Part shown: positions 19,394 to 35,174 of the stretch, piece by piece
Numbering within the stretch: the first letter of the stretch is position 1
Layout of the letters: every line of letters begins with the position of its first letter
Origin: an uncultured Planctomycetia bacterium
GTDB taxonomy: Bacteria; Omnitrophota; Gorgyraeia; Tantalellales; Tantalellaceae
Length of the DNA stretch: 45,089 bases
Direction of reading: 5' to 3'
Assembly (NCBI GenBank): GCA_964528025.1
Contig: CAZGOZ010000004.1
Location: forward strand, 1-45,089
Program-made: the position numbers and the translations under genes
Notes under the pieces: generated by a model
Told to the model about the DNA's origin: nothing
What the model saw: only the letters and a program-made list of their open reading frames with translations
The model's database searches: none

Positions 19394-20524
19394 CTATCGG
19401 TTCCAGCTGACGATCTCGACTTCTGTTCCACTGTCACCCGTACCCGTACCGGTAGGAATCGTTCTGACATAATTGTAATCAATATTGGCAAACACGTTGT
19501 CAATGTTTATCTTGCGGCCGGCAAGCAGAATACCGTTAATATCCACGATAGCCCCCCACTGCACGGCAACAAAATCCTGTTGCGCGTAAATAAGGGCTTC
19601 TTCCGTGTCTATGCGGCCAAAAACGCTTATGTTTCCCCCGCGAGCCACTACCATGTTGTAATCCCCATATTTTTTCTGGATCAAAGTTCCGTTTATACGG
19701 ATCTTCTCTGCCACAATACCCCCGCTCACCGTGCATACACCCTTGAAAGTCGCAATGCCTTCCACATAAACAATGCCGTTAGCCGGCGAAAGCGTCGTAT
19801 CAGTAAACGTTTTATTGCCGGAATAATAATCTCCGGAATCGATGGCCGCCGCCTTATGTAATTCATAATCAAATACGGGGAAATCTATCCGTGGAGCGCC
19901 TTCTTCCACGGTAGCACTGTCATTACTCTGGCCGTTAATATAGACATTCTCATCAAATTTATCCTGGAGATAATGAATGGTGCCTTCCTTCACTTCTCCC
20001 GTCGCCGACACTTCTCCCGTTATATCCATTCGCCCGAGAACAGGCCCTCCTGAAAGATAAACCATGTCATTCGCATGAATATCGCCATTTAAGCTTATGG
20101 TCGCGAAAGGGAAACAACGCAGCCGGATGGTATTTCCGACCCCAATCAAATAATCCAGGGCCGATGCCGCATTCTTCCGGATCTCAACCACCACGGTTCT
20201 TGAAACCCCTCCGGACGTACCTACTGACGTAACGAGATACCGGGTTCCAACCTGTGAAAACGTGACGACATAACTTCCCGTGTCCATAGTTGTCGCAAAA
20301 TCCGTCTGGGAGTCAAAACCACCCGCTTCAAGCTTTGCACGGGCATGATTTATGCCGGATTCGGCTATATTCTTCGCCTGTTCATTCAGCGTGGCGCGTT
20401 TCACCAATTCTATATCGCCTCTTAGGACGGAAGTAAATGCAAGTACAGTCGCTGACATCAGCAGCACAAAAACCATGACCAATATCAGAATGCTGCCTTT
20501 ATTTTGTATTTTAGACTTTATCAT
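19394..20524 (-). CDS. PilX_N-like minor pseudopilin, module A (no Glu5; repeat-rich C-terminal region)
   Basis: Start moved to ATG 20524 (MIKSKIQNKGSILILVMVFVLLMSATVLA) because the longer ORF begins inside a GC hairpin. Paralog of 23337-24473; both end in VSWNR. Confidence 0.7.
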   Translation of the reverse strand: MIKSKIQNKGSILILVMVFVLLMSATVLAFTSVLRGDIELVKRATLNEQAKNIAESGINHARAKLEAGGFDSQTDFATTMDTGSYVVTFSQVGTRYLVTSVGTSGGVSRTVVVEIRKNAASALDYLIGVGNTIRLRCFPFATISLNGDIHANDMVYLSGGPVLGRMDITGEVSATGEVKEGTIHYLQDKFDENVYINGQSNDSATVEEGAPRIDFPVFDYELHKAAAIDSGDYYSGNKTFTDTTLSPANGIVYVEGIATFKGVCTVSGGIVAEKIRINGTLIQKKYGDYNMVVARGGNISVFGRIDTEEALIYAQQDFVAVQWGAIVDINGILLAGRKINIDNVFANIDYNYVRTIPTGTGTGDSGTEVEIVSWNR

Positions 20525-20537
20525 TTGGATTCCTACT

Positions 20538-20590
20538 GGGCGGGTATAAAACCCGCCCCTACTCATTTCGGGCAGGTTTAGAACCTGCCC
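20538..20590. repeat. Two tandem GC-rich hairpins (GTAGGGGC...GCCCCTAC family)
   Basis: gggcgggt-ataaa-acccgccc followed by ggcaggtt-tag-aacctgcc, each followed by ctac. They sit between the stop of the giant pseudopilin and the start of the PilX-like gene. Confidence 0.85.
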
Positions 20591-22882
20591 CTACTTACTC
20601 GTGTTCCTCGGTTCTATTTCCAGTCTATTTTCTTCTTGTAAGATTCTGCCGAAAAAATCCACGGACGCTTTCATGTCCACGATAAGCGTCTTAATCAGTT
20701 CTCTTCCGTCAACCGTCACGGTTACCTGACCGTAATCATTTCTTTTAGCGATATCGCCACTGATCGTGCACACGCGATCTTTGCCCGGCCAGTCAACTTC
20801 AATGTCGTCAACCCATACCGAAGTCACTCCCGACACGAGAAACTCGCCGCTATATAAGGGGAACTCATAAGACGCTAAAGATACCTGTTCATTTACATAG
20901 TCCTCATAACTTTTCTTGCCTCCTCCGCCCGATATCTCCCAATACGGCACGGTTGAAAGTTCCGCCATGGACTGAACATAGCGTCCGGCAACGGCCGGAG
21001 GCGATCCGGAAGAAAGTGTTTCCCACTCTGCCGCACCGCTCATATTTTCGTCGTCTGAAGCCCGGGCTTTCACGGATGCCGCAGTGCCGACCGGACTGTA
21101 TTCCGACCATCTAATCGTGTTATACGCCGGATTATCCAGGGCCGTATTAAAAATCTGAGATTCAACGGTTCCGACCTTCCGCCAGCTATCAATTTCCGCA
21201 ACGGCAAAAATCTCGTCAGTAGAACCTTCCGGCGTGTAAACGCCCTGCCATGCGGGCGTCCCGACGGCCTTCTCTAAATCTGCCAGGTCGTATCCCGCGC
21301 CTGTAAGATAATAAGTATTAACCGAACTCCCGGGCCAGTATTTACAGGCTCCTCCCGCGGGGACGGTGACAAGATATGTTACAAGATAATCAACCGCGTT
21401 TCCGACGGAATCCGCTGTGATAAGCGGAAAGGCCGTCCACTCGCTCCACGCCTCCCCTCCCTGTGGCAAGCTTGGCAGTATTGTTATTCCGGAAACTATA
21501 TCATCAGTGACTCCATCGCCGTCAAAATCCTCGATGGTATCCCTGAAAAACAATTGCTGATGCATATGGTACTCTTTTGCATCTTCTCCGGGTATCGGAT
21601 TATCGTTTTCAAGACCGTCATAATTTTCCGCCCCGACAGCATTGTTTTTCCTTGTAATATAGGCCTTCTCTATGCGGAGACTGCTGCCGGCAGAAGAAGA
21701 TGTCATAAATCTAATCCGGATGAGATCCTTTTCTCGATTCAGGACCAGATACTGACTTTTTATCAGCGTCCTGATAACCATGGGATCATCGGCTTCGCCT
21801 GCCGGATTGGACGGATTAGCATATCCGTCAATTTCATTCGCGCCGGTCTGCTGCTGCGCATGCCATGCCACCTCTTCGGGATCGGTAGCATAGCCCGGCA
21901 GATCAAAGGCATTAGGAAGGTCAAGCGCGACTCTTTCCTCCTCTCCTGTAAGAGAAACGTTATCTCTAGATGCCACTTCAAAAGAAGAGTTCCGCCACAA
22001 ATCATAACCGTCCGTAATCTCTATCCAATCCCCGCTTCCCATGGCGGCATATTCAAGGTAATTGCCGTTTCCCCATTTGTCGCCATATACTCTCGAAGCC
22101 GTGAAGCCATTAGAGTTGAACATCCCCGGCAAAGCAAACGTGGAAATATAGTATTCGGCTTCCCGCACGCTTCCGGAAGGCGTAATCTTAAGATTATCTA
22201 TCCCGAAGGCATATCCGGATGAAGATGTATTTTTCCCCGCTACCGTAAAACGTATATCATGAGAACCGAGGCCGAGCTGAACATGACCAAAGGTAACATT
22301 TTTTTTGCATACGGCATCGGCGGATTCATCATAAAAATCAGTTATAGGAGAAGACGACGAAATTTCAAAACTTTCAAGATCGGTTCTTATAAGGTCCTTA
22401 TAGGAATCACCTGCTAACGTGCCGGATGCCACGTTCGCCAATTGGCCGTATCTCTCCTGCCGCCCCCATCCGCTGTTCCATGAATTAATAACCGTCCGCC
22501 GGAGTTTTTTTCCGACCCCTGCTTCTACTATTACATGATATATAACGGTTTTGTCCCAGGCAATTTTATTTTCGCCGTCAAGCGAATAAAGGCCGTCATC
22601 GTCAGCCTCAGCCAAAGGCATGCTTATGGCCGTAAAAACCGCGCCACCGGTGGGATAAAACAGCATATAAGTGCCGCTTGACAGACGAATATCCCTTCTT
22701 ATCGTTTCAAGGCCCTTCATCATATCTACACGCAGGGCGCTGCGGTACCTTTCGGCTGTCCACACTTTATGGAAAAATGTCCAAATCGAAAGGGTGGTTC
22801 CCAGAACAAACAGCGCAACACTCACCGCAATCAACAATTCCATGATTGTGACGCCTTTTCGTCCGAATATGCCGCCGTTCAT
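20591..22882 (-). CDS. Giant pseudopilin, module A (prepilin-type N-terminus, 763 aa)
   Basis: MNGGIFGRKG/VTIMELLIAVS (Gly-1, Glu+5). AAGGAG RBS before ATG 22882. Aligns along its whole length with 24481-26784. Confidence 0.75.
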   Translation of the reverse strand: MNGGIFGRKGVTIMELLIAVSVALFVLGTTLSIWTFFHKVWTAERYRSALRVDMMKGLETIRRDIRLSSGTYMLFYPTGGAVFTAISMPLAEADDDGLYSLDGENKIAWDKTVIYHVIVEAGVGKKLRRTVINSWNSGWGRQERYGQLANVASGTLAGDSYKDLIRTDLESFEISSSSPITDFYDESADAVCKKNVTFGHVQLGLGSHDIRFTVAGKNTSSSGYAFGIDNLKITPSGSVREAEYYISTFALPGMFNSNGFTASRVYGDKWGNGNYLEYAAMGSGDWIEITDGYDLWRNSSFEVASRDNVSLTGEEERVALDLPNAFDLPGYATDPEEVAWHAQQQTGANEIDGYANPSNPAGEADDPMVIRTLIKSQYLVLNREKDLIRIRFMTSSSAGSSLRIEKAYITRKNNAVGAENYDGLENDNPIPGEDAKEYHMHQQLFFRDTIEDFDGDGVTDDIVSGITILPSLPQGGEAWSEWTAFPLITADSVGNAVDYLVTYLVTVPAGGACKYWPGSSVNTYYLTGAGYDLADLEKAVGTPAWQGVYTPEGSTDEIFAVAEIDSWRKVGTVESQIFNTALDNPAYNTIRWSEYSPVGTAASVKARASDDENMSGAAEWETLSSGSPPAVAGRYVQSMAELSTVPYWEISGGGGKKSYEDYVNEQVSLASYEFPLYSGEFLVSGVTSVWVDDIEVDWPGKDRVCTISGDIAKRNDYGQVTVTVDGRELIKTLIVDMKASVDFFGRILQEENRLEIEPRNTSK

Positions 22883-22906
22883 ATTATCTCCTTGCGTATC
22901 ACTCAC

Positions 22907-23335
22907 TTACTCACTGGTATTAAAAAACACCGCTTCCATTGTTACTGGATGTCCCGATTCAACACCGTCCTCAAGTCTGTCTACGCTGACTTTTATCCTC
23001 AAAAGGTCGACATAGCCGGAATAGTCCTCAAAAACTTCGGTGGTCCGGTAATAGTCCGTTATCCCATCTCCGTTTGTATCAACGGACGTCTTCGTCTCCG
23101 GGGCTATAACGGGCAAATCACTGAAGGGAAATTTTCCGAGAACGTCTATCTGACGTTGGGCCAGAATAGAAGCCGTGTATACCTTATCGGCCTGTCCCGT
23201 AAATGTCACGCACCGGACTACCGCTACGATCAGAGCCACGAGAACCATAGCCATTATCCCGCTTGCCAACACCACTTCCACGAGGGTGAAGGCCGATTTA
23301 TATCCTGAACGTTTTTGGGGGGAATAGATTTTCAT
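22907..23335 (-). CDS. Small pseudopilin, module A (142 aa)
   Basis: ...GYKSA/FTLVEVVLASGIMAMVLV prepilin-type segment. ATG at 23335, next to the stop of the upstream gene. Contains a DTNGDGITD loop. Confidence 0.7.
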   Translation of the reverse strand: MKIYSPQKRSGYKSAFTLVEVVLASGIMAMVLVALIVAVVRCVTFTGQADKVYTASILAQRQIDVLGKFPFSDLPVIAPETKTSVDTNGDGITDYYRTTEVFEDYSGYVDLLRIKVSVDRLEDGVESGHPVTMEAVFFNTSE

Positions 23336-23336
23336 C

Positions 23337-24473
23337 TTATCGGTTCCAGCTGACCACCCTGACCCCGCTTGTCTCATCGGTCATGAAAAGCGGATAAATA
23401 TACGTATAAGTGTATGCGAGATCCGTCTTAACGTTAAACATGTCTATGTTTCTTTTTGCCAGCATTATACCTTTAACTCTGACAACGGGGGTTACCCACC
23501 AGACTGTTGCATGTGTTTTGATGTCCTGTGAAGCATAGACGCAGGCTTCCCGCACGTAAAGTTCTCCTCCGATATCTATATCTCCGTCTTTGGCGATTAC
23601 AACATTTCTGTCACCGCGTCTGAACTGATTAAGCGTGCCGTTAACATAAATATTATCGGCAATTATTCCGCCATTAATCGTGCAGGACCCTTCTATGGTT
23701 ACATCTCCGTCAACATAAACTATTCCGTTTTTCGGCGTCATGGTCTTGGAAGAAAATATCTGGGATGACTCGTAATAATCATCCGAATCATCGGCCGCGT
23801 CTTTATAGCTCGTATAATCAAACTCCGGGAAAGAGGCCCTTTTTGTGTCCTCATATACTCTTGCGCCGTCTCTGGCAACACCGTTAATCTCGACGTTTCG
23901 GTCCATTGTATCGGGACGATCGTGCCTTGTTCCTTCCCGGACAATATTCGAAGCGGAAACGTCTCCATCAATGGATAATTTGCTAAATATCTGCGCTACC
24001 AGAATAACATCGTTATTGGCGTGAATGTCTCCGGTTATGGAAAGCTCTTCCACCCCGGCATAGGCCTGTATCTTGATATTATTTCCGGCACACGCGATAT
24101 AATCCAAAGACGTTGGGGTTAAATCCTCTAATTCCGCCGATACCGTCGAAGAAGCCCCGGAAACGGTCCCTGTCGAAACCACAAGATGCTTGCCGGAGCT
24201 TTCAAGAAATTCCACGCTGTAAGAACCATTATCAAGACGGTCCGTGAAATTCGTACGTGAAACAAACCCGTTCTCCTGCAGTTTAGCAAGGGCATGATTT
24301 ATCCCCGCCTCGGCCATGTAACGCGCCTGTTCTCTCTCCGTGACAGCCTGGATAAACTTCACATCTGTCTGGACCATAGTAGATAGAGAAACCGTGCTGA
24401 AAGCCATTATTGCCACGAAAAGCATCACAACTATCAGAACTATTCCCTGTTCTTGTGTGGATCTTTTTTTCAT
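23337..24473 (-). CDS. PilX_N-like minor pseudopilin, module B
   Basis: MKKRSTQEQGIVLIVVMLFVAIMAFSTVSL...AEAGINHALAKL. 378 aa. Paralog of 19394-20524. Confidence 0.7.
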   Translation of the reverse strand: MKKRSTQEQGIVLIVVMLFVAIMAFSTVSLSTMVQTDVKFIQAVTEREQARYMAEAGINHALAKLQENGFVSRTNFTDRLDNGSYSVEFLESSGKHLVVSTGTVSGASSTVSAELEDLTPTSLDYIACAGNNIKIQAYAGVEELSITGDIHANNDVILVAQIFSKLSIDGDVSASNIVREGTRHDRPDTMDRNVEINGVARDGARVYEDTKRASFPEFDYTSYKDAADDSDDYYESSQIFSSKTMTPKNGIVYVDGDVTIEGSCTINGGIIADNIYVNGTLNQFRRGDRNVVIAKDGDIDIGGELYVREACVYASQDIKTHATVWWVTPVVRVKGIMLAKRNIDMFNVKTDLAYTYTYIYPLFMTDETSGVRVVSWNR

Positions 24474-24480
24474 CCAGCTC

Positions 24481-26784
24481 CTATTTTCCGGTATTTTTCG
24501 GCTCTACTTCCATGGTATTACCTATTTCCAGGGTTTTACCCCTGATCTCGGTTGATACTTTTGCCGTGACTGAAAGGATCTTCGTCACTTCTTCTCCGTC
24601 AATCAGCACCTTTGCCCGGCCATAATCGTTTTTCCTCGCCACATATCCCGAAACGACACAACTTGTCCGTCGCGCGCCCGGCCAGCTTATCTGGACATCG
24701 TCCAGCCACGGATATTCGACAGTCGCAGCAAGTAATTCTCCTGAAGCGTCACGCGGGAAAATATACGGATCACCCTTTCGTTGTCTTTGCACATAATCGC
24801 TATAATTAAGCTGCTCGCCGGACGATTCCCACAAAAGACCGGCCGTTAATTCCGCCAAAAATTGCACATACCTTTGGCTGCTTATGGATAAAGCATGGGG
24901 ATTGGACGTTCGCCCGCTTATGTCTTCCCAATCACTTGCTCCGTCCATAGCACTATTTGCCGAAGACCGCGCTTTAAGTCGTATCTGCGTTCCCCCGGGA
25001 CGGTTCTCTGACCATTTCATGCTGGCGTAAGCGGGGCTTGTTTTGGCGGTATCAAAGATTTGTGATTCCACCGTTCCGGTTTTTTTCCAGGTATCAATCT
25101 CCTCAACAATAAAAATACGGTCATTACCCCAGTAATCCCTGTTTTTCCTTTCAATTCCCAGATTCTGTGACCATGAAGGCGTTCCGGCAATCTCAATTCC
25201 ATGCGCATCACTGTTTATGTCGTTGTCTTTCACATAAAATGAGAGGTCTGTCTTCCCCCTCCAATATCTGCAGTCCGGCTTGCCACCATTGAATGTCTGA
25301 AACTCCGCCGGAAAATCAACATCCTCAAGTTCCGGAATATAAATCGCTATCATATAATCAACGTCTCTGTCGGCAGAGTTTTTTTGGACAAACGGAAAAG
25401 CGGTCCATTCACTCCAGACTTCCGAATTAGCAGGAATATATACCTCTTCCAGCAGATCTTCAGCTCCGCTGGGATTTCTCATATCATACGCATCTCTAAA
25501 AAACAACTGCTGATGCCAATGATACTCTGGAATCTCATTCTTGCCGGGTTTTTGATTCGGAAGGCCATCCACCTCTTCCCCGCTTTCTCTCCTCATTATA
25601 TAGGCAGCGGATATTTTTAGGGGGTTCTCCGAGGATGATCGAAACTTTACTCTGATAAGATCGGCATCGTCAATTATGAATCCGTTCTCTACAATCGTTC
25701 GAATAACGACAGGACATGTCGGCAGGTTTCCGTCTCTTCCTCCCAGAGTTGCGTCACCGGTTTCTGCAGCGGACGACCAGGCTATCTCCACGGCCTCTAC
25801 GCCTTCCTGAGGGACATCCAGCTCCACGTGCACTTCTTCTCCGGCTTTCGTAGTATTATCCAGAGTAGCCGACGCAAAGGAAGATTCTCTCCATAAATCG
25901 TAATAGTCTTTAAATTCCACATAAGCCCCTGCGCCGCCGGCCTGGAATTCCAGATAATTATTGTTCTCCCAGACGGAATCATACACGCGTTTGGCCGTTC
26001 CGCCTGTTACCGTAAGAGCCCCATCCGGCGCGAAAGAAGAATTATAATATTCGGCTTCTCTCCAACTCCCGCAGGGAGTGATGCTAATATTATCTATCCC
26101 TATTCCGTATCCTGAAGATGCGGGATTTTTCCCGTCTATTTCAAAGCGTATCGTGTGCTCTCCTGCGGACAATCTCGCTTCGCCAAACGTTATTCTGTCA
26201 ACTTTCACGGGAGTATCGGATTCATCGTAAAAATCAACCAAAAGCGCCAGGGGATCTACAATGAAAGTTTCCAGATTCCGCAGAAAATTCTTATCCGTCG
26301 TTGAGTCGCGGCCCCCATCCCCACTGTCAACGGTATTTTTCAATTGTTTATACCTCGCGGCATCGGTCAAGTCATTGTCCCGCGGGTCATAAACCGTCCG
26401 CCTCAGGGTAGCCGTTCCGTCCTCTTCGCTAAATATGTGATAAACAACCGTTTTGTCCCATTCTATCGCTTCGTCGGCGTCAAGTTTCAAAAAACCCCCG
26501 TCATCGGTGTCCGCCACAGGCAGGCTTATCGCGGAATAAGATGTTTCTTCGGCGGGATAAAACGACATGTACCTGAGACTGGATCTGCGTATATCTCTCT
26601 TGATAATCTCCAGCGCTTTCATGAGATCCACCCTCAAATGTGTCTCGTCGCTTTTTTCAACCCAGGTCTTATAGATAAAAACCCACGCGGACGTTACACT
26701 CCCGATAATAACTACCGAGACCATAATAACGAACATTATCTCTGTCAACGTAAACCCGCGCTGATTTAACCTTTTTCGCCACAT
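24481..26784 (-). CDS. Giant pseudopilin, module B (767 aa)
   Basis: MWRKRLNQRG/FTLTEIMFVIMVSVV prepilin-type N-terminus. GAGGAAGAGG RBS. Confidence 0.75.
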   Translation of the reverse strand: MWRKRLNQRGFTLTEIMFVIMVSVVIIGSVTSAWVFIYKTWVEKSDETHLRVDLMKALEIIKRDIRRSSLRYMSFYPAEETSYSAISLPVADTDDGGFLKLDADEAIEWDKTVVYHIFSEEDGTATLRRTVYDPRDNDLTDAARYKQLKNTVDSGDGGRDSTTDKNFLRNLETFIVDPLALLVDFYDESDTPVKVDRITFGEARLSAGEHTIRFEIDGKNPASSGYGIGIDNISITPCGSWREAEYYNSSFAPDGALTVTGGTAKRVYDSVWENNNYLEFQAGGAGAYVEFKDYYDLWRESSFASATLDNTTKAGEEVHVELDVPQEGVEAVEIAWSSAAETGDATLGGRDGNLPTCPVVIRTIVENGFIIDDADLIRVKFRSSSENPLKISAAYIMRRESGEEVDGLPNQKPGKNEIPEYHWHQQLFFRDAYDMRNPSGAEDLLEEVYIPANSEVWSEWTAFPFVQKNSADRDVDYMIAIYIPELEDVDFPAEFQTFNGGKPDCRYWRGKTDLSFYVKDNDINSDAHGIEIAGTPSWSQNLGIERKNRDYWGNDRIFIVEEIDTWKKTGTVESQIFDTAKTSPAYASMKWSENRPGGTQIRLKARSSANSAMDGASDWEDISGRTSNPHALSISSQRYVQFLAELTAGLLWESSGEQLNYSDYVQRQRKGDPYIFPRDASGELLAATVEYPWLDDVQISWPGARRTSCVVSGYVARKNDYGRAKVLIDGEEVTKILSVTAKVSTEIRGKTLEIGNTMEVEPKNTGK

Positions 26785-26809
26785 ACTGCCTCTTCCTCTT
26801 TATGCCGTT

Positions 26810-27256
26810 TCATGCAACATCTGATATCAGCGTTTCCATTACGATCTTCTCTTCGCCGAAAACCGGAGCGCCGCGTCCCACCCGGGTCACCGTCCCTCCA
26901 AGGGTAATCCCCACTTTTTTAACAGTTACTTTAACTTTTGCCAGATGTGAATTATTATCATAATTCGCTGTGACCTCCATGGTCCGCGAAAAATCGTCCA
27001 GTCCGTCTCCGTCAACATCTACGCGAAAATCATCCTCGGCGCCCGCCGACAAGAGCTGATCAAAATCAAACCTTCTCAGCTGATCTATCCCCGACTGAGC
27101 CAAACAAGAGGCTGTATATGCCATGTCTATCCGTTTTGAGAACACAGAACTCTGGGACATGACAGCTATCAACGCCCCCATCACAACTCCGACAATGGCG
27201 ACAGAAATAACAACCTCTATCAGCGTCAATCCTCTGTTATTTTTCGTTTTTGCCAT
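26810..27256 (-). CDS. Small pseudopilin, module B (148 aa)
   Basis: MAKTKNNRG/LTLIEVVISVAIVGVV, with a DVDGDGLDD loop. Starts 11 nt after the rng stop. Confidence 0.72.
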   Translation of the reverse strand: MAKTKNNRGLTLIEVVISVAIVGVVMGALIAVMSQSSVFSKRIDMAYTASCLAQSGIDQLRRFDFDQLLSAGAEDDFRVDVDGDGLDDFSRTMEVTANYDNNSHLAKVKVTVKKVGITLGGTVTRVGRGAPVFGEEKIVMETLISDVA

Positions 27257-27267: not shown

Positions 27268-28815
27268 TTAACGTTCATCGATAATAACGTCTTCTATATG
27301 CAGCGTCCCGTCTTCCTTAAGCTCTATTTTACAGCGATATTTACGCTGAATTTCACTCAGCATCCTTGCCTGATCCAATACGAGAGCCGCATGAACATCC
27401 GGATGCAAAGTAACACGCACATGTTTTCTTTTTCTTGTGCTCTCGGCGATTATCCTGTCTGTTCTGCGAACGGCCTCTATCGCGATCGTTTCCACGCTCT
27501 TGATCATTCCTTTTCCCCCGCAATACGGGCATTCCACGTGCGATGACCCTTCCAGGCTTTTTCTCATCCGCTGACGCGTCATTTCAACTACGCCAAACGG
27601 AGAGATGGGATGCAAATTTATCCTCGCTTTATCCGCCTGCAGTTTTTGCTGCAGAAGATTAAAAAGCCGGTCTCGGTGATCCCTGCTGTCCATGTCAATG
27701 AAATCGATTATGATTATGCCGCCTATATCTCTCAATAATAACTGGCGCGGAATCTCTTCCGCAGCATCCATGTTCGTTTTATACGCGGTCTCTTCCAGGT
27801 TTTTCCTGCCGACAAAACTGCCGGTGTTCACGTCTATCACGACCACACCTTCGGTCTGCTCGATTACGAGATGTCCACCGCTTTTGAGTGTGACTTTTCT
27901 TTCAAATATCTCATCTATTTTTTTGTCCAGATTATGTTTTTGAAACAACGGCTCCTTTCCGGTATACAGCTTGACTTTTTTTCTGAGCGACGGCATGAAC
28001 GCATTCAGAAACTTGTTAATGCGGGCATATTCTTCCCGCGAATCAACCAGAAGTTGTGTTACATCTTCGGTAAAGATATCCCTGACTATGCGTAACACTA
28101 CACCATACTCCTCATACACGGTTATGGGAGAAGATTGTCGGTCGGCCCTCATTTTTATGCGCTTCCACAGATTTAACAGATATTTGATCTCATTCTGCAA
28201 TTCTTTTTCCGTCCGTTTTTCCGCAACGGTCCTGACAATACAACCAATCTTATCCGGAAGTTTCAATTTATCAAATATATCTCGTATTCTTCTGCGTTCG
28301 GCCTTGTCCGTTATTCGACGCGATATGCCTATATTATCGTCATGCGGGGTTAAAACAACAAATCTTCCCGGAAGACTCACATACGTGGTCAACCGCGGCC
28401 CTTTAGTTCCTATAGCTTCCTTAACGACCTGCACCATTATTTCTTCGCCTGTTTTCAGGATTTCCTTTATGCCCGGAGCTCTTTTTCTTCTTTCCGTTTT
28501 AACGACAGGAACATCTTCACCGGGAAGAAGCGCCCGAAACGCGGAACTTTTATCCAGGACATCGCTCACATGGAGAAATCCGTTCTTCTCCAGACCTATG
28601 TCTACGAAGGCCGCTTCGATGCCGGGAAGGATAGATTTAACCCGTCCCTTATAGATGCTTCCCGCGTAATGCTCGAGACTTTTCCGTTCCATGAAAAAAT
28701 CAACTAAAGCGCCGTTCTCTACCACGGCTATGCGTTTCTCAACAGGACCGACATTAATCAGTATCTCTCCGCCCTTCTTCTCGGGAGATTTCTCTATGGG
28801 CATTCCTCTTCTCAT
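27268..28815 (-). CDS. rng: Rne/Rng family ribonuclease (RNase G-like)
   Basis: S1 domain (IYKGRVKSILPGIEAAFVDIGLEKNGFLHVSDV), a catalytic core (IIIDFIDM) and a zinc-link-like CPYCGGKG. 515 aa. ATGA overlap with the upstream gene. Confidence 0.88.
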   Translation of the reverse strand: MRRGMPIEKSPEKKGGEILINVGPVEKRIAVVENGALVDFFMERKSLEHYAGSIYKGRVKSILPGIEAAFVDIGLEKNGFLHVSDVLDKSSAFRALLPGEDVPVVKTERRKRAPGIKEILKTGEEIMVQVVKEAIGTKGPRLTTYVSLPGRFVVLTPHDDNIGISRRITDKAERRRIRDIFDKLKLPDKIGCIVRTVAEKRTEKELQNEIKYLLNLWKRIKMRADRQSSPITVYEEYGVVLRIVRDIFTEDVTQLLVDSREEYARINKFLNAFMPSLRKKVKLYTGKEPLFQKHNLDKKIDEIFERKVTLKSGGHLVIEQTEGVVVIDVNTGSFVGRKNLEETAYKTNMDAAEEIPRQLLLRDIGGIIIIDFIDMDSRDHRDRLFNLLQQKLQADKARINLHPISPFGVVEMTRQRMRKSLEGSSHVECPYCGGKGMIKSVETIAIEAVRRTDRIIAESTRKRKHVRVTLHPDVHAALVLDQARMLSEIQRKYRCKIELKEDGTLHIEDVIIDER

Positions 28816-29132
28816 GTTTTTTCTTCCTTTTTGTCTATGGCGGTGATCCCGAGGAGCTTTACCCCCTCAGGCAATTGTCTGTTAATCTGTTCCAGAACCT
28901 CAACCGCATCTTTCTGTTCCGTTAAAAAAAAAGCCATTTCTTCTTCCCTGCTCTCGCGCCCCAGTTTCAACGCCCGCGGTATACTTATCTTTACACGCGG
29001 CGTATATCCTTTCGTCAACACGAAAGGGAGAGACGTCCTACGGACGGCTCTGCGAAAAAGCGTCATCAAATCAAGGTGGGAGATATAAACCATGTCTTCT
29101 TTTTTTTCAAAGATAGCGTTGTACTTTATCAT
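28812..29132 (-). CDS. DUF2344 / TIGR03936-like radical-SAM-linked protein, short form (106 aa)
   Basis: YISHLDLMTLFRRAVRRTSLPFVLTKGYTPRVKISIPRALKLGRES. Start moved to ATG 29132 because the longer ORF N-terminus lies in the AT-rich palindrome. Confidence 0.65.
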   Translation of the reverse strand: MIKYNAIFEKKEDMVYISHLDLMTLFRRAVRRTSLPFVLTKGYTPRVKISIPRALKLGRESREEEMAFFLTEQKDAVEVLEQINRQLPEGVKLLGITAIDKKEEKT

Positions 29133-29143
29133 ACACCTAATCT

Positions 29144-29271
29144 GAATTTCAAATAACAAAGCACAAAATTCAAAATAAATCCAAAACTTCAAATCCAAAT
29201 AACAAAATTTTTGTTCCTTTGAAATTTGTCATTTGGGATTATTTTGTGCTTTGAATTTTGTCCTTTGGATT
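29144..29271. repeat. Long AT-rich imperfect palindrome (subfamily caaaattcaaagcacaaaat)
   Basis: The left arm is ~90% identical to 14371-14430. The right arm (29239-29271) overlaps the last codons and stop of pilQ. Confidence 0.85.
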
Positions 29272-31065
29272 TCCCCCTCCTTCACCGCTTTTCTCCTCTT
29301 TCTTCCCTTCGCCTGCGGGCTCTTTCTCTTTTCTGAAATCCATTATCGGTTTATAGCCCTCTTTCTTATCCTTGAAAGGATTCTTGTCATCCCACGGGAC
29401 TTTCTGCGCTTCAAAATTCTCCCACCTCCGGATGATCTCATCGCTGTCATTCTGCGATTTTCCTATATATTTATCATACTCCGCCATCATCTGGCCGGCC
29501 TTGACGGAATCCATCGCGTCTTTCACGAGATGCACCGTAATGAAAAACACTATTTCCGTTCTTGTTGCGGCCTCAGCCTCATACCTGAACAAATGTCCCA
29601 TAAACGGTACATGTTGGAATATATCCCCCAGAACCGGAACTTTATTATCTTTTCGCTCTACTTTTCGTTTTATCAGCCCTCCTATAAAGATCGTCTCACC
29701 GTCTCTCGCCCGTATAGTCGTGCTGGCCTCTCTTGAGTTAAAGGTAAGCGCAACCGTGGATAACGTCCCGCCTGCAACCGCCTGTGTAGAAAATCCAGCA
29801 TTCGTGGACACTTCCGGAAAAAGGTTAACGGATATATCGCCGTTCTCATTTACATGCGGGATCACTGTCAGTTTCACTCCGGCTTCCCTAGCCTCCGCTT
29901 CCTCCTCAAACTCAACAGTGACTATACCGGCCGTCTGTGTCGTCTCCTGAGTCTTCTGCAGCATCACTTTCTCCACCACCTTTATCATGGCTTTCTGATT
30001 ATTAAGCGTAGTGATCCGCGGACTTGAAAGCGTCTCCGTATTCAACCTCTCGTCTATAAAACTCATTGTCGCCGTGAAGGTGCTGAAGTCAAGCGAACCG
30101 TATGTAAACGGAGCGGCATAGTTCAGTGTAGTAGTTGAGGTTATCGTTGGAGCAGGGGTAAGATACGGGAAGTCAGAACTCTGTTCAATGGCCGTTTCCG
30201 CGATATTGGACATGTACGGAAAGAACTTTCTCTGGCCGCCGGGAAGAAACCCAAAAACTCCGCTGCGTTCAAATGGAAAAGTCGTGGGCCGTTTGGCCAT
30301 TGACGCGGAAATAATCGCGTTCCAGTCCACACCGAACCGTTCGTCATCATCCAGCTCAATCTCTATAATTTTGGTATCCAGCAAAATCTGCGGTGTTTTC
30401 TTGTCTATTCTCGCGACCATATTTTTCACTTCAATAATTCGGGCGGGAATGGCTGTTACGACTATCGCATTCGCGCTTTGCACAAAAGTGGCCTTTTCTC
30501 CTTTTCCGATGTCAATAATTGAGTTAACGGCCGCCATTAGCTGGATGATGCTTTCTTCCTTCTCCGCCACAGTTATCCCTTCCCCGGATGAAGTACCTTT
30601 TGTCAATTCCACTTCGCGCATGATATGGTTTATCGGAATAACTTCCGTTACCGGCTCTTCACCCTGGAGCTGGGTCTTGGGCATGACCCGAATAATATCC
30701 TGCTTATCATCCCGAAGATATACATATCCGCTATTTCTGGTAACAATATCCAGCGCGGTCTCCCATGGTTTGTTCCTGAGCCGCATGGTGACCATTCCTT
30801 CCACTCCGGGAGAAGGGACGATATCCACCCCGCTGACCTCTGACAGATAATGCAAAACCGTCATGATGTCCACATCCTTGAAATTCACCGTTACGTTACC
30901 GGAAGCCGGAAGAGGTTGTTCGGATTCCTTTTCCACTTCCACTACGGGCGTTCCGGCCGGCGTCGCCATCTGTCCATACAATGGCACCGGGTTCATTCCC
31001 GCAAAAACTATCACGATAAATACAACAAACCCTTTCATTACACTTCCATATTTTCTTATTTTCAT
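29239..31065 (-). CDS. pilQ: Type IV pilus secretin PilQ with a ~94-aa K/E-rich C-terminal extension
   Basis: N0-like domain (VNFKDVDIMTVLHYLSEVSGVDIV) and a secretin core ending VPVLGDIFQHVPFMGHLFRY...EIVFFITVHLV. AAGGAG RBS before ATG 31065. Confidence 0.85.
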   Translation of the reverse strand: MKIRKYGSVMKGFVVFIVIVFAGMNPVPLYGQMATPAGTPVVEVEKESEQPLPASGNVTVNFKDVDIMTVLHYLSEVSGVDIVPSPGVEGMVTMRLRNKPWETALDIVTRNSGYVYLRDDKQDIIRVMPKTQLQGEEPVTEVIPINHIMREVELTKGTSSGEGITVAEKEESIIQLMAAVNSIIDIGKGEKATFVQSANAIVVTAIPARIIEVKNMVARIDKKTPQILLDTKIIEIELDDDERFGVDWNAIISASMAKRPTTFPFERSGVFGFLPGGQRKFFPYMSNIAETAIEQSSDFPYLTPAPTITSTTTLNYAAPFTYGSLDFSTFTATMSFIDERLNTETLSSPRITTLNNQKAMIKVVEKVMLQKTQETTQTAGIVTVEFEEEAEAREAGVKLTVIPHVNENGDISVNLFPEVSTNAGFSTQAVAGGTLSTVALTFNSREASTTIRARDGETIFIGGLIKRKVERKDNKVPVLGDIFQHVPFMGHLFRYEAEAATRTEIVFFITVHLVKDAMDSVKAGQMMAEYDKYIGKSQNDSDEIIRRWENFEAQKVPWDDKNPFKDKKEGYKPIMDFRKEKEPAGEGKKEEKSGEGGGNPKDKIQSTK

Positions 31066-31095
31066 CGGTAAACTCCTTTGTAACACGTGTTGCGC

Positions 31096-31257
31096 TATTT
31101 AAATAACCAATAACCAAGATATGGATAATGTCAAATGACAAAATTCAAAGCACAAAATAAGCACAAATACCAAAATCCAAAACACAAATAAAAGCTTTGT
31201 TATTTGAATTTGAGATTTTGGATTTATTTTGGATTTTGTGCTTTGTCATTTGGATTT
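31096..31257. repeat. Long AT-rich imperfect palindrome, composite, between pilP and pilQ
   Basis: ctatttaaataaccaataaccaagatatggataatgtcaaatgacaaaattcaaagcacaaaataagcacaaata..., with a complementary right arm ending gtgctttgtcatttggattt. Confidence 0.85.
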
Positions 31258-31283
31258 AACGCCTGTCCTCAGTGTTGCAGTTC

Positions 31284-31673
31284 TCATTCGTAAAGCCTTA
31301 CTTCATGTTCCTCTTCGCCTATCTTGATCCGCACGCTGTCGCGCCCTACGGATAAAACGGACACTCTTCCTGCGGTGTCTCCCTCTTTTAATATTTCGCC
31401 GTTCATTATAACGCTCCGGACGCCTTTCGTGCCGCCCACGATGCCCTGAAGGATGATATCATCTATCGTGCGCACTTCCTGTATGTCACCTTTCGTGCCC
31501 GTCTCGGCAACTCCAACAAGCGGGACAAAAGGATCCCGACGGCTGCGTGAATCATATTTCACTTCGTCACTTCCATCCGCGCTGCCGCTGAACAACAAAG
31601 CAGCAAACGCAAGCGTCAGCGCCAATGCGCGGGGAGTCATGACTTTATTCTGTTTTTGTCTCGGTTGATACAT
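31284..31673 (-). CDS. pilP: PilP-like pilus assembly protein
   Basis: Signal/lipoprotein-like N-terminus, RRDPFVPL motif and a small beta-domain, in pilMNOPQ order. Start is ATG 31673 or 31640. Confidence 0.6.
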   Translation of the reverse strand: MYQPRQKQNKVMTPRALALTLAFAALLFSGSADGSDEVKYDSRSRRDPFVPLVGVAETGTKGDIQEVRTIDDIILQGIVGGTKGVRSVIMNGEILKEGDTAGRVSVLSVGRDSVRIKIGEEEHEVRLYE

Positions 31674-32295
31674 AAGTCTTTAAGGCCATTTCTATATTGT
31701 GAATCCTCGGCGTCTTTTTGTTCTGCTTTATCCGAAGTTCTTCTATCGTGACGAATCTTTTGCCACCTTCAAGTTCGCTCACAAATCGCCCCAATTGATG
31801 ATATCCGCTCCTCGCCGTGATAAGAACCGGCAGTTCATAATAATAGTCCGTCTTCGTTTCCCCGTTCTTTTCATCCTCCTGATCAGAAGGGGTTATACCC
31901 GATATTTTAACGGCGGACTCTTTGGCAATTATCGAAAAATCCTCAAGAAACTTTGGTATTTCCTTCTGCTCCGGAAGTCCCTTGGCGTATCCTCCGAGTT
32001 CCTCTCGTAATATTCCCAGACGGTCTTTCATTTTGTCCAGCCGCCCCAGACGGGTTTCTACCAATTCTATATTGTTTTTAATATCCTTCGCTTCCGCTGA
32101 CAATCTGGAAAACCCGGAACAGGAAGGCATGACCACAACCAGTAAATATAGTAAAACAAAGAAAACCATGGCTCCCAGGATTATGTACATCCGCGATTGC
32201 TCATTATCCCAAAGAGGCTTTACCTTCTCATCCCAGAGATTTTTCACTTTCTCATTTACGATCTTATCAAGTATTACCTTTTTTAAGTCGATCAT
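31645..32295 (-). CDS. pilO: PilO-like pilus assembly protein
   Basis: Single TM helix, a coiled-coil and a C-terminal ELPVLITARSGYHQLGRFVSELE motif. ATGA overlap with pilN. Confidence 0.72.
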   Translation of the reverse strand: MIDLKKVILDKIVNEKVKNLWDEKVKPLWDNEQSRMYIILGAMVFFVLLYLLVVVMPSCSGFSRLSAEAKDIKNNIELVETRLGRLDKMKDRLGILREELGGYAKGLPEQKEIPKFLEDFSIIAKESAVKISGITPSDQEDEKNGETKTDYYYELPVLITARSGYHQLGRFVSELEGGKRFVTIEELRIKQNKKTPRIHNIEMALKTYVSTETKTE

Positions 32296-32993
32296 TTCCC
32301 TTTTTTCTTTTCTTTCTTACTATCTGTTGTTTTTTTCTCCGCTCCCTGCGTTTTTTCCTCATCCGGAGAAGGAACTGTCTTTACCGGTTTAACCTGGCAT
32401 CTAATTATGAACAGCATGGCTTCCTTGCCGGTAACTTCACGGCTCCGCATATTTTCAAGCTCTATATCCTCAAAAGCCTCCGAAAAACCCTCCTCACTCT
32501 TCAGGCTCGTAATAAATTTTGCTACACGCGAAGTGGCTTCTTCTCCGCTGCCCAGAGCGTAACCCGTAAGACTCAATGTGACCGGCTCGGCCATCCCTTT
32601 TCTCTTTTTTCCGGCGGTATCACGAAAATCCAGTTCAAACTCGGAAAGCCAGATATTGGAAATCGTGGCCTGGTTCAGTCCGCTGAGTAATCTTGTCCAA
32701 TTCAACTGAGGCTTAGCGATCTTGCGCACGGCAACCACTTTTTTTTCAAGAGCGGCGATTTCACGGGCTATTCTTTCCGTTTCTTCCCGCTGCGGTTGCA
32801 TCTTTTCCCACTGAACTTCCACTCTCCTCAAAGTCCTTTTTTTACACGCCAGCGTAACCAGCAGCGTAATCTGTACAACAATGATTACCGCCGCTACTGC
32901 GATCACCAACATCAATATCGGCAACTTCGGCATCTTGACTGATTGCCGTTTCCTTTTGCGAAATTCTTTGGGGAGCAGATTAAGCTCTATCAT
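32292..32993 (-). CDS. pilN: PilN-like pilus assembly protein with a K/E-rich tail
   Basis: MIELNLLPKEFRKRK (INLLP-type motif), then a TM helix. Confidence 0.75.
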   Translation of the reverse strand: MIELNLLPKEFRKRKRQSVKMPKLPILMLVIAVAAVIIVVQITLLVTLACKKRTLRRVEVQWEKMQPQREETERIAREIAALEKKVVAVRKIAKPQLNWTRLLSGLNQATISNIWLSEFELDFRDTAGKKRKGMAEPVTLSLTGYALGSGEEATSRVAKFITSLKSEEGFSEAFEDIELENMRSREVTGKEAMLFIIRCQVKPVKTVPSPDEEKTQGAEKKTTDSKKEKKKGK

Positions 32994-33019
32994 AAATCAA
33001 TACCTGGTTTCTGAGCGCT

Positions 33020-33964
33020 TCATCTAAGAGCCAGACCAATACCGACAACGAGTTGTAACGCTACTTCTTCTGCGGCTTCTTTAGAAATGCTCTCCGAGAT
33101 TTCTAATCCCGCCATCGGGTCCCATTTTTTTACCGTAACTCCCAGTTTTTCCCCAAGATAACTAATCATGCGTTCTCTATAAGCCACGCCTCCGGAACAA
33201 TAAATACCACTTATCCCCTTGTTATACCTGTTTTCAAAATAGCTCAGAGAAAGCTGCATCTCTCTTATCAGGTTAGAAATAACCGGAACGGAATCCTGGG
33301 CGATTCGTTCCTCATCCGTCGCGATATTCCTGCCCCCAAGCTGCACTTCTCTGGTAAAATAAGGTTGTTTTCCGATTGCAATAAGCATATCGGTTCGCGA
33401 GTGCCCGATATTAAGAAAGATGTTTCCTTCATCCTCCGGCAGGAGATTATTCTCCGTGAAGGCGTTAAACATGGCAAAGGGATCAATATCCACGACACCC
33501 ACCGCCATGTCCAATCCCTCAACTGTTTTCACTAAAGATCCAACGGCTTCCCGTTTGACAGCGGCCAGAAGCACTCTCATCTGACCGGTATCGGGCGCAT
33601 CCCCGAGAATAATAGAATCAAGGATAACATCACTCACATTAAATGGGATGTATTTTTCTGCTTCAAAGGACAAGGCGCCTTCAAGCTGCTCTTTGCTCAT
33701 TTTTGGAAGATTTATAAAACGAACTATCACTTCGGGGCCGGAAAGCGACAGGTTCACCATTTCCGGATGGAGATCAATCTCATCTAATGCCTCTCTGATT
33801 AATGAAGATCGATCGAAGGATTTCACGTCGACGGGAATCTGCTTGATATTATACGCGGCAAGCGTCTTCTTCCCGGACGTCTTATCAATGGCCACGACCT
33901 TTATCGCAAAACTGCCGATATCAAGCCCGACCGTTCTCTCTGTCCTACTGCCAAATTTTATCAT
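33020..33964 (-). CDS. pilM: PilM, actin-like ATPase of the T4P alignment complex
   Basis: GLDIGSFAIKVVAI...FLNIGHSRTDMLI...YCSGGVA. Confidence 0.82.
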   Translation of the reverse strand: MIKFGSRTERTVGLDIGSFAIKVVAIDKTSGKKTLAAYNIKQIPVDVKSFDRSSLIREALDEIDLHPEMVNLSLSGPEVIVRFINLPKMSKEQLEGALSFEAEKYIPFNVSDVILDSIILGDAPDTGQMRVLLAAVKREAVGSLVKTVEGLDMAVGVVDIDPFAMFNAFTENNLLPEDEGNIFLNIGHSRTDMLIAIGKQPYFTREVQLGGRNIATDEERIAQDSVPVISNLIREMQLSLSYFENRYNKGISGIYCSGGVAYRERMISYLGEKLGVTVKKWDPMAGLEISESISKEAAEEVALQLVVGIGLALR

Positions 33965-34024
33965 TATATGGCATGATCTCTTCGCATGTTATATATATAG
34001 AGGAATTAATATTATGTTACAGCA

Positions 34025-34053
34025 AGATTATCATACCAGAATATCATTGTCAA
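34025..34053 (-). promoter_or_regulatory. Weak candidate sigma70-type promoter for pilMNOP(Q)
   Basis: Minus strand reads TTGACA, a 17-nt spacer, then TAATCT. Confidence 0.3.
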
Positions 34054-34128
34054 GTAGGGGCAGGCCTTGTGCCTGCCCTACAACCATAATCATTAATTAT
34101 TTCGGGCACCCACAAGGGGTGCCCCTAC
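34054..34128. repeat. Two GC-rich hairpins (GTAGGGGC...GCCCCTAC family)
   Basis: gtaggggcaggc-cttgt-gcctgccctac and gggcaccc-acaa-ggggtgcccctac. Confidence 0.85.
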
Positions 34129-34184
34129 GATTTTTTAATTACGATACGGATTTCGTGCGGGGCATGTCCTGCGAAAACAAATAT

Positions 34185-34219
34185 AAAAAAAAGGCGGTTC
34201 GCATGAACCGCCTTTTTTT
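34185..34219 (-). terminator. Bidirectional rho-independent terminator downstream of the pilin gene
   Basis: An A-run, ggcggttc-gcat-gaaccgcc, then a T-run. It begins ~30 nt after the pilin stop at 34251. Confidence 0.8.
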
Positions 34220-34250
34220 GCTTTACATACATGTCAAAATGCCTACACGA

Positions 34251-34607
34251 TTATGCCTCTGCTGCAGGCGCGACCAGATAGTGAGTGGTCGGTGAATTCG
34301 GACATATCGGCACACCATCGGTGAGCGTATAGCTCGCCGTACCTGACGGACATAACGGCTCCCGCTTGATGTAATCAGGCGTCAAATTCGCTACCGTAGC
34401 AGTCACGCCGGGGTTATCCAGCGAATATAACACGATAGCACCTTCAACCTGCTTCATGTTCGCAATACAGGCATTTTTCTGAGCATTCTCGCGAGCTTTC
34501 ACGAAGTTCGGAATGGCTATAGCAGCCAATAGACCTATAATTGCAACAACTATCATGATCTCAACAAGAGTAAAGCCGCTCTTACCCATTAATTTACGCA
34601 TCTTCAT
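34251..34607 (-). CDS. Type IV pilin (GspG/ComGC-like short pilin, 118 aa), probable major pilin
   Basis: MKMRKLMGKSG/FTLVEIMIVVAIIGLLAAIAIPNF. AGGAGGGGG RBS before ATG 34607. Has its own candidate promoter and terminator. C-terminal Cys pair (CPSG...PICP). Confidence 0.85.
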   Translation of the reverse strand: MKMRKLMGKSGFTLVEIMIVVAIIGLLAAIAIPNFVKARENAQKNACIANMKQVEGAIVLYSLDNPGVTATVANLTPDYIKREPLCPSGTASYTLTDGVPICPNSPTTHYLVAPAAEA

Positions 34608-34663
34608 TTTTCTCACCCCCCTCCTTTTCTTAACCACAAGGTCCATCATAGACCTCTAACTAA

Positions 34664-34692
34664 AGTATACTCGCGCGTTTTTCGTAATGCAA
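34664..34692 (-). promoter_or_regulatory. Candidate sigma70-type promoter for the distal pilin gene
   Basis: Minus strand reads TTGCAT, a 17-nt spacer, then TATACT, ~55 nt upstream of ATG 34607. Confidence 0.5.
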
Positions 34693-34779
34693 ATTTACAC
34701 CAAACTTTTGTTTAACACCAGTGTTAATAAAACAAAAAGCTGATAACTGTTTTCTTTGTTCCGTTTTTCCTTCGGTTTT

Positions 34780-35121
34780 TTACGAAGAAGAAGTCGGTAA
34801 CTGATGCTCCTCAGGGTCGTTAGAACACACAGGATCGCCGTTTACAATCGTGTAACCGGCCGTCCCCATCGGACATCGGGGCTCTCTCATCAGATAGTCC
34901 GGTACAAGATCAGATACTGCAGCGGGTGTCGTATTAATTTCTAGCTCATACAACTCAAGGGCCGTTTCTAGCTTTCTCAGGTTTGCAATACAGCACTGTT
35001 TCTGGGCTTCTTCCCGGTTGCGAATAAAATTAGGAATAGCTATTGCTGCTAAAAGCCCCAGAATAAAAACCACTATCATAATCTCAACGATAGTGAACCC
35101 TTTATTTCGATTTTTTTTCAT
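34780..35121 (-). CDS. Type IV pilin paralog (113 aa)
   Basis: MKKNRNKG/FTIVEIMIVVFILGLLAAIAIPNF, with a C-terminal CPMG...PVCS pair. Confidence 0.85.
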   Translation of the reverse strand: MKKNRNKGFTIVEIMIVVFILGLLAAIAIPNFIRNREEAQKQCCIANLRKLETALELYELEINTTPAAVSDLVPDYLMREPRCPMGTAGYTIVNGDPVCSNDPEEHQLPTSSS

Positions 35122-35174
35122 TCCCTCTCTTTAGCTGCCTCTCTCCCCTACCGCAGTTTTTCATCAAAGTTCCC

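Follow-up and report, generated by a model that had tools for sequence, protein, structure and literature searches.

Results

The window analyzed here, a stretch of 45,089 nucleotides, comprises positions 1 to 45,089 of contig CAZGOZ010000004.1 (assembly GCA_964528025.1) from an uncultured bacterium titled Planctomycetia and assigned to Omnitrophota by GTDB. The entire window is transcribed leftward, and between positions 19394 and 27256 it carries six packed minus-strand open reading frames (ORFs) that form two collinear trios, each consisting of a gene for a small pilin-like protein (S), a giant one (G), and a PilX-like one (X); we refer to the two modules as A and B and to homologous loci in relatives by L-numbers. 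Module B comprises S_B (27256-26810, 148 amino acids), G_B (26784-24481, 767 amino acids), and X_B (24473-23337, 378 amino acids). It is followed by module A with S_A (23335-22907, 142 amino acids), G_A (22882-20591, 763 amino acids from an ATG, or 771 from an in-frame GTG at 22906), and X_A (20524-19394, 376 amino acids from an ATG, or 390 from an upstream ATG at 20566). The ORF lengths in L002, a relative 84 to 95% identical, favor the shorter starts of both G_A and X_A. Spacing is tight throughout, with 11 nt between the RNase G gene and S_B, 25 and 7 nt between the successive genes of module B, 1 nt between X_B and S_A, and, depending on the starts chosen, 0 to 24 nt between S_A and G_A and 24 to 66 nt between G_A and X_A. 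Promoter-like sites (23 in the window versus 19.3 +/- 4.2 expected) and terminator-like sites (17 versus 12.1 +/- 3.5) occur at chance level, so the operon structure is inferred from gene spacing alone. Rfam and tRNA scans of the window returned no matches.

Pairwise BLASTP aligned the paralogs over their full lengths, with 38% identity between S_A and S_B (E = 4e-20), 41% end to end between G_A and G_B (E = 0), and 41% between X_A and X_B (E = 5e-98), a degree of sequence similarity that is far beyond chance. An earlier reading of the nucleotides and ORF translations (the sequence-only reading) had described two tightly spaced units of identical gene order whose paralogs were roughly 35 to 45% identical from end to end. 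All six ORFs lie where that reading had placed them, with the lengths it gave, and the blocks that it singled out, WDKTV(V/I)YH, SSGY..GIDN..ITP.GS.REAEYY, GTVESQIF.TA, GINHA.AKL, and the C-terminal VSWNR, are present in both copies. At the DNA level, the only repeat left between the modules is a 26-nt stretch shared by the 3' ends of the X genes, with a spacing of 3943 nt; the duplication must therefore be old, as had been supposed.

Proteins of the two modules

The small pilin has the most conventional N terminus of the three. The leader of S_B (MAKTKNNRG/LTLIE, the slash marking the predicted prepilin cleavage site) passes both Pfam N_methyl (PF07963, 33.0 bits against a cutoff of 21.2) and TIGR02532 (24.0 against 16.3), and S_B also has a subthreshold XpsI match. 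Prepilin models match S_A below threshold, and its PilV and GspI scores are lower than those of S_B; homologs of S from the Planctomycetota-Verrucomicrobiota-Chlamydiota (PVC) group score 30 to 33 bits against PilV. In the family alignment, Glu at position +5 is present in 47 of 47 sequences, Gly at -1 in 44, and Ala at -1 in the other 3, namely, S_A, its L002 ortholog, and one more member. The S-family profile found generic pilin-helix matches only when run against PDB sequences. The likeness of S to PilV and GspI is limited to size, operon position, and N terminus.

Gly-1 and Glu+5 are both invariant in the G family (33 of 33), of which 22 members match N_methyl at an E value of 0.01 or lower. 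G_B (leader MWRKRLNQRG/FTLTE) passes TIGR02532 (18.3 against 16.3) and reaches no Pfam gathering threshold, its best match being N_methyl (20.5 against 21.2); G_A (leader MNGGIFGRKG/VTIME) has no Pfam or NCBIfam match by itself, and its Gly-1 and Glu+5 align within the family alignment. Apart from the prepilin motif, no G-family member matches a Pfam family, including any Pfam carbohydrate-binding module (CBM). An AlphaFold model of G_B (pLDDT 85.4, built with 33 sequences) predicts an N-terminal helix (residues 13 to 66), a pilin sheet (74 to 132), and then about 600 residues of beta-sandwich modules. With its pilin helix and sheet ahead of these modules, G fits the description of modular pilins given in PMC8179133.

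With respect to what the modules might be, positions 194 to 235 of the G profile (approximately G_B residues 195 to 237) match the xanthan-binding module MiXBM (7EHG) with an E value of 5e-6; the match covers the last 42 of the 138 MiXBM residues and includes the conserved motif G.H.IRF...GKN..SSGY..GID.I. The profile also has a weak CBM32 match. Foldseek with the G_B model retrieved jelly-roll, concanavalin A, and phage-tail proteins. Whole-protein searches of PDB and viral structures gave low TM-score matches to the phage phi812 baseplate, beta-galactosidase, complement, and jelly-roll capsids; these we set aside as candidates, as they indicate beta-sandwich content and nothing more specific. 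The regions that vary most in the family are residues 321 to 360 and 481 to 560, over which G_A and G_B are 12 to 28% identical with indels, and the most conserved stretch is the CBM-like region (201 to 320). One homolog (P0023, L023:481-3549, 1010 to 1022 amino acids) carries an extra LamG-like jelly-roll domain (PF13385), which shows that the family tolerates further module insertions.

The sole sequence lead from G_B to GspJ or PilW is a 20-bit N-terminal match to a PpdB-like family, and the G N terminus is 33% identical over 64 residues to a 192-amino-acid pilin that occupies the same operon position in L001. Gene order and this weak N-terminal similarity are the grounds on which we tentatively place G at the PilW/GspJ position.

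X carries the pattern of GspK/PilX-type subunits, with Gly-1 in 53 of 53 family members and Glu+5 in none. The leaders of X_B (MKKRSTQEQG/IVLIV, without Glu+5) and X_A (MIKSKIQNKG/SILIL) conform to it. X_B passes Pfam PilX_N (PF14341, 28.0 against 25.5), a model that 14 of the 53 members match at an E value of 0.01 or lower; X_A does not match PilX_N and matches the N terminus of GspK weakly. The match of X_B to GspK (34.2 bits, cutoff 130) is confined to the first 68 residues. The AlphaFold model of X_B (pLDDT 92.1, pTM 0.81, built with 44 sequences) consists of a helix (residues 3 to 68), four pilin strands (76 to 117), a beta-solenoid (approximately 127 to 356), and a last strand (371 to 377) at the VSWNR end, and it contains no GspK-type alpha-domain. 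In terms of secondary-structure order only, this layout is compatible with a solenoid placed between the penultimate and last strands of the pilin sheet. The top Foldseek match of the model was Thermus ComZ (PDB 6QVI; E = 4.9e-7, probability 1.0), and ice-binding beta-solenoids ranked next, with target TM-scores of 0.5 to 0.57; ComZ was likewise the best match of the X-family profile among PDB sequences, with a nonsignificant E value of 0.37. As modeled, X would be a beta-solenoid pilin of the kind represented by ComZ and cyanobacterial PilX, and GspK-like in its N-terminal helix only. In some relatives X by itself has multiplied, with three tandem copies in L004 (12289-16075; 55 to 77% identical) and two each in L012 (12356-14998) and L018 (5435-7872).

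The sequence-only reading had assigned prepilin-type N termini to S and G and a GspK/PilX-like one to X. For S and G this assignment is borne out by family-wide conservation of Gly-1 and Glu+5, the exception being S_A, which has Ala rather than Gly at -1; for X it is borne out by Gly-1 without Glu+5 and by a ComZ-like tip fold, and it fails beyond the N-terminal helix. Class III signal peptides, rather than ordinary signal anchors, are indicated by the conserved Gly-1 and Glu+5 of the S and G families and by model helices of more than 50 residues. The profile searches that it had proposed gave a divided result: among the module B proteins the thresholds of N_methyl, TIGR02532, and PilX_N are passed, and the equivalog models of PilV, GspI, GspJ, and GspK are missed.

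Pilus machine and flanking genes

Upstream of the modules, also on the minus strand, lies a type IV pilus gene cluster whose assignments are based on Pfam and NCBIfam matches. In the order of transcription, genes for a radical-SAM protein (Radical_SAM_N2; 43147-44886) and a HAMP-GAF-GGDEF protein (41590-43038) come first, and the cluster itself (29239-41471) then encodes the retraction ATPase PilT (40386-41471; PilT_fam, 455.7 bits versus a cutoff of 319), an MshEN-only protein of 155 amino acids (39906-40373), two PilB paralogs that are 43% identical (38170-39891 and 36436-38139), PilC (35175-36395), and two short major-type pilins of 113 and 132 amino acids (34780-35121 and 34251-34649, respectively; 57% identical). 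It continues with PilM (33020-33964), PilN (32292-32993), PilO (31645-32295), a 129-amino-acid ORF (31284-31673), and a PilQ-type secretin (29239-31086). Two housekeeping genes, by Pfam match DUF2344 (28812-29198) and RNase G (27268-28815), separate the machine from the modules. Downstream of the modules follow rplU, rpmA, obg, proB, proA, nadD, and further housekeeping genes.

PilQ is the best-scoring model for the secretin, PilB scores slightly ahead of GspE for both ATPases, and the short pilins have their best scores against GspG and ComGC. The 129-amino-acid ORF occupies the place expected for PilP, after PilO and before the secretin, and its sole match is a weak one to T2SSB (E = 0.0055). 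Both PilB proteins have MshEN N-terminal domains, which bind cyclic di-GMP (c-di-GMP), and their neighbors include the lone MshEN protein and the HAMP-GAF-GGDEF protein; this suggests c-di-GMP control of the two extension motors. As the sequence-only reading had remarked, there is no PilY1 (Neisseria_PilC) or vWA gene, at least among the scanned minus-strand ORFs of 110 or more amino acids in the window. Its proposal that both modules serve a single nearby machine is compatible with the type IVa-like machine encoded 2 to 15 kb away; a single machine is not the sole reading, since the locus has two PilB proteins and two short major-type pilins.

Genes of the Radical_SAM_N2 and DUF2344 families are usually adjacent or fused. 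Here, and Omnitrophota-wide, they flank the pilus machine, just as rng and rplU flank the tip modules, so that the pilus genes look like insertions in a conserved run of housekeeping genes.

Conservation of the trio

At the sensitivity used, a homology search with G_B returned 69 proteins, and all named ones were from Candidatus Omnitrophota. In a pattern scan with a single genome for each GTDB species, 78 loci were identified, approximately 40 of them in Omnitrophota (29 to 84% identity) and the remainder in Kiritimatiellia, Verrucomicrobiota, Lentisphaerota, and Ratteibacteria (24 to 35% identity). An exhaustive search with the G profile yielded 308 clusters at 50% identity with E values of 1e-30 or lower and 534 with E values of 1e-10 or lower. 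Mapping by tblastn revealed that the order secretin, DUF2344, RNase G, one or more S-G-X trios, rplU, rpmA, obg is kept in approximately 30 Omnitrophota loci and that the conserved order extends upstream of the secretin to PilM. Most species have a single trio, with two or more in the window, L002, L006, L007, L013, L025, and L034; in L006 (9571-17579), the genes follow an irregular order, S G X G X S G. In Kiritimatiellia, Verrucomicrobia, and Lentisphaerae, the trio or a G-X pair lies amid genes for pilins, PilC, PilB, PilM, and secretin. This cross-phylum linkage is the strongest contextual evidence tying the trio to a pilus system, and the type IV pilus association proposed from the window extends in this way across Omnitrophota and other PVC phyla.

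Several further features of these loci are worth recording. L001 (Ca. Makaraimicrobium thalassicum) carries, between RNase G and S-G-X (6644-9314), a different second trio of the same order that encodes a 132-amino-acid pilin, the normal-sized pilin of 192 amino acids mentioned above, and a 566-amino-acid PilX-like protein matching cyanobacterial HpsA (E = 1.5e-27, below the cutoff). Since this second trio is unlike the first, the rng-rplU site hosts different kinds of minor-pilin cassettes. Omnitrophota encode between one and three short major-type pilins, a count that does not follow the number of tip modules. A pairing of one major pilin and one PilB with each module was rejected, as single-module genomes have one to three short pilins. 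A relationship to the Verru_Chthon cassette (TIGR02596-02600) was likewise rejected: the window proteins score 9 to 17 bits against cutoffs of 51 to 332, and the homologous trios from Verrucomicrobia, other PVC members, and Ratteibacteria do not match it at all. Seven loci (L003, L004, L009, L011, L022, L024, and L042) are titled "uncultured Planctomycetia bacterium" despite Omnitrophota synteny and G proteins 43 to 51% identical, and this title is probably a taxonomic mislabel.

History of the copies

Neighbor-joining trees with bootstraps, which are distance based and star-like, identified lineage-specific G duplicates in L034 (92% bootstrap) and L006 (100%); the window modules A and B were sisters in 0 of 100 bootstraps. 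G_B groups with L005 (84%) and X_B with L017, L018, and L022 (68%). X_A is instead sister to the X proteins of L009, L010, L012, and L033 (76 of 100 bootstraps), G_A groups with these four loci and L031 (61%), and S_A is 53 to 56% identical to S of L012 and L010 versus 38% to S_B. A tree of RNase G and Obg places the window with L001 and L022, and from this tree and the groupings of the modules, B is the apparent resident ortholog. Module A would be an old paralog that other lineages have lost or, alternatively, a cassette obtained from a neighboring clade, two histories that star-like distance trees do not separate. Tandem duplication, as the sequence-only reading had put it, is accurate insofar as there are two diverged ancient copies and too simple insofar as all three A genes group with another clade, not with B; the phylogeny that it had proposed places the L034 and L006 pairs as lineage specific and A and B never as sisters. 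A recent in-place duplication was rejected, given that DNA similarity is restricted to 26 nt and that A and B were not recovered as sisters in any bootstrap.

Compared with L002, all six genes have dN/dS ratios of 0.12 to 0.29, indicating purifying selection. The module A genes are 92 to 93% identical to their L002 counterparts at the amino acid level (dN/dS, 0.14 to 0.29), and G_A is more tightly constrained than G_B. The latter evolves fastest, being 84% identical to its counterpart (L002:7060-9363) versus 92 to 95% for the other five module genes and 98% for RNase G, and it has changed mostly within residues 360 to 720, where dN is highest. By these sequence comparisons, both modules are maintained.

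Discussion

Our data favor a reading, to which we give moderately good odds, in which each trio is a minor-pilin priming and tip set for the neighboring type IVa-like pilus, with G replacing PilY1 as the adhesin. In this scenario, the S-G-X set would prime assembly and then cap the pilus encoded 2 to 15 kb away. S would act as the small PilV/GspI-position subunit and as the partner of X. G would be a PilW/GspJ-position subunit that has gained approximately 600 residues of beta-sandwich, one module of which is carbohydrate-binding-like, and it would probably serve as the tip adhesin in place of PilY1. X, a ComZ-like pilin without Glu+5 and with an inserted beta-solenoid, would probably be an apical cap or plug. 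Two such modules would furnish two alternative tips that differ in ligand or host-surface specificity, or they would prime two filament types. Complex formation by the trio, its location at the tip, glycan binding, and a functional difference between the modules are steps that we infer only.

Several results weigh against this reading. None of S, G, and X meets an equivalog threshold for PilV, GspI, GspJ, or GspK; S_B, for instance, scores 23.5 bits against a PilV cutoff of 52.2 and 20.7 against a GspI cutoff of 44.35, and the leader of S_A (...GYKSA/FTLVE) has Ala at -1. The profile of the G pilin module (residues 28 to 165) retrieved no GspJ, PilW, or other pilin structure from PDB. The putative link of G to carbohydrate binding comes from the 42-residue motif match, and a profile of the CBM-like region (alignment A6) was uninformative, returning 19 short unannotated or HEAT-repeat proteins and not the G family. 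Neither module includes a FimU/GspH-type fourth core pilin, and the window has no prepilin peptidase gene. Finally, dN/dS in sliding windows against L002 peaked at 0.63, below 1 throughout, and so gives no direct sign of diversifying selection.

The comparison with known systems places the trio between several of them. The S-G-X order matches the I-J-K and V-W-X gene orders of known systems. Like the GspI-GspJ-GspK complex of enterotoxigenic Escherichia coli (ETEC; 3CI0) and the FimU-PilVWX-PilY1 set of Pseudomonas, the modules have a small, a middle, and a Glu+5-less subunit in this order, show N-terminal matches to GspI, PilV, and GspK, and lie beside an assembly machine. They differ in that X has a solenoid where GspK has an alpha-domain, in that PilY1 and GspH/FimU are not part of the modules, and in that G is about four times the usual size of the middle subunit. 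In Myxococcus xanthus, several paralogous minor-pilin/PilY1 sets serve one pilus machine. Those sets consist of PilY1 and four minor pilins and are dispersed in the genome, whereas the sets described here have three genes, lack PilY1, and stand in tandem.

The closest structural parallel is Thermus thermophilus ComZ-PilA2 (6QVI). Judging from the X_B model, X shares with ComZ an N-terminal hydrophobic helix without the canonical Glu+5, a small pilin sheet, and a large triangular beta-solenoid followed by the last strand, and its presumed partner is likewise a small GspI-like pilin from a neighboring gene. The authors of the ComZ study reported the same structural relatives, ice-binding solenoids, and argued that a ComZ-like protein fits only at the pilus tip (PMC6561018). 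The parallel has its limits: ComZ has 554 amino acids versus 378 for X, TM-scores stay low at about 0.3, the sequences are barely similar (E = 0.37), and a giant pilin at the PilW position is missing from the Thermus locus.

Cyanobacteria use two minor-pilin sets, both with a solenoid PilX, to prime two types of filament, and this PilX was proposed to take the place of the PilY1 "tip plug" (10.64898/2026.02.12.705559). These core sets (PilX-PilV-PilW-FimT, of the Com and EPS types) are likewise compact cassettes present more than once per genome. Unlike them, the modules described here lack a FimT/FimU-type gene and have a PilW-position protein of about 760 amino acids, and their copies do not form two deep co-occurring subfamilies, with one copy being the rule and lineage-specific duplications recurring.

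For G, the relevant precedent is the modular tip pilins that serve as adhesins, such as PilB of Streptococcus sanguinis with a vWA module, PilC of the same species with a lectin module, and ETEC CofB (PMC8179133, PMC9934059). G similarly joins a pilin to bulky modules that would fit only at the filament tip, and one of these resembles a carbohydrate-binding fold. In contrast to the known examples, its extension, about 600 amino acids in several beta-sandwiches, matches no Pfam/InterPro-type signature, binding by G is putative, and the family that G belongs to is a distinct one, spread across PVC bacteria and comprising at least 308 clusters at 50% identity.

Given the resemblance of X to ComZ, one or both modules might instead form a DNA-receptor tip of a competence pilus, with the other set serving adhesion or motility. 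The best structural match of X is a DNA-binding tip pilin (PMC6561018), the major-type pilins match ComGC, both PilB and the short pilins are paired, and the cyanobacterial sets are specialized for competence and motility, respectively. However, the solenoid PilX occurs in both cyanobacterial sets (10.64898/2026.02.12.705559), and the fold is therefore not diagnostic. Moreover, most Omnitrophota have a single module, the duplicates of L006, L007, and L034 are lineage specific rather than representing two deep functional classes, pilin number varies independently of module number, and the window has no comEA or comEC. We regard a competence tip as unlikely.

Improbable as well, in our judgment, is a role of the trios as pseudopilus tips of the GspI-J-K type in a type II secretion system (T2SS)-like machine, where they would push substrates, such as the large surface proteins or hydrolases of Omnitrophota, through the secretin instead of capping an adhesive pilus. 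In its favor are the N-terminal matches to GspI, XpsI, and GspK, the best scores of the short pilins against GspG/ComGC, the NCBI annotation of some G homologs as "type II secretion system protein J," and the report that giant-protein loci of Omnitrophota are often flanked by T2SS/pilus genes (10.64898/2026.06.07.730766). The machine itself argues otherwise, since it includes a PilT-family retraction ATPase above its cutoff, a PilM/PilN/PilO platform instead of GspL/M/C, a secretin of the PilQ type, and ATPases slightly closer to PilB than to GspE, and X has a beta-solenoid in place of the GspK alpha-domain. To our knowledge, a tip subunit of 760 amino acids is not a feature of any known T2SS.

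Least probable is the idea that module A has no distinct role and is a redundant or decaying copy left behind when a cassette was duplicated or acquired: the rare Ala-1 of S_A, the failure of S_A, G_A, and X_A each to reach prepilin or PilX model thresholds, and the sufficiency of one module in most species would fit such a history, but all three A genes are intact and keep Glu+5 where their families have it, and their identity to L002 and low dN/dS, tighter for G_A than for G_B, speak for maintenance.

Beyond the reading of each trio as a priming and tip set, a broader proposal would be that G founds a PVC-wide family of PilW-position modular pilins that has no Pfam model, that in ultrasmall, host-attached Omnitrophota it acts as a glycan-binding, host-recognizing tip adhesin in place of PilY1, and that rng-rplU is a cassette hot spot where duplication, swapping between lineages, and replacement (e.g., by the HpsA-type trio of L001) change the host range. 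We advance this proposal tentatively and consider it rather doubtful as a whole. As concepts, alternative tip sets, solenoid PilX proteins, and modular pilins are already established; the family of 760-amino-acid PilW-position pilins, its distribution across PVC bacteria, and the dynamic nature of the Omnitrophota cassette site seem not to have been described, and our literature search found no paper treating Omnitrophota minor pilins.

Nearly all Omnitrophota have type IVa pili, for which a role in attachment to hosts has been proposed (PMC10066038). These bacteria are uncultured and mostly ultrasmall, and their presumed way of life is attachment to, or predation on, other cells. Our analysis suggests that a large family of modular pilins has gone unannotated, and PVC bacteria would join Thermus and cyanobacteria as a third lineage in which the absence of PilY1 is paired with a PilX-type solenoid pilin. 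If the trio is indeed the pilus tip, G and X would be candidate host-recognition molecules of Omnitrophota, and changes in module copy number, together with the exchange of cassettes, would constitute a readable record of host switching.

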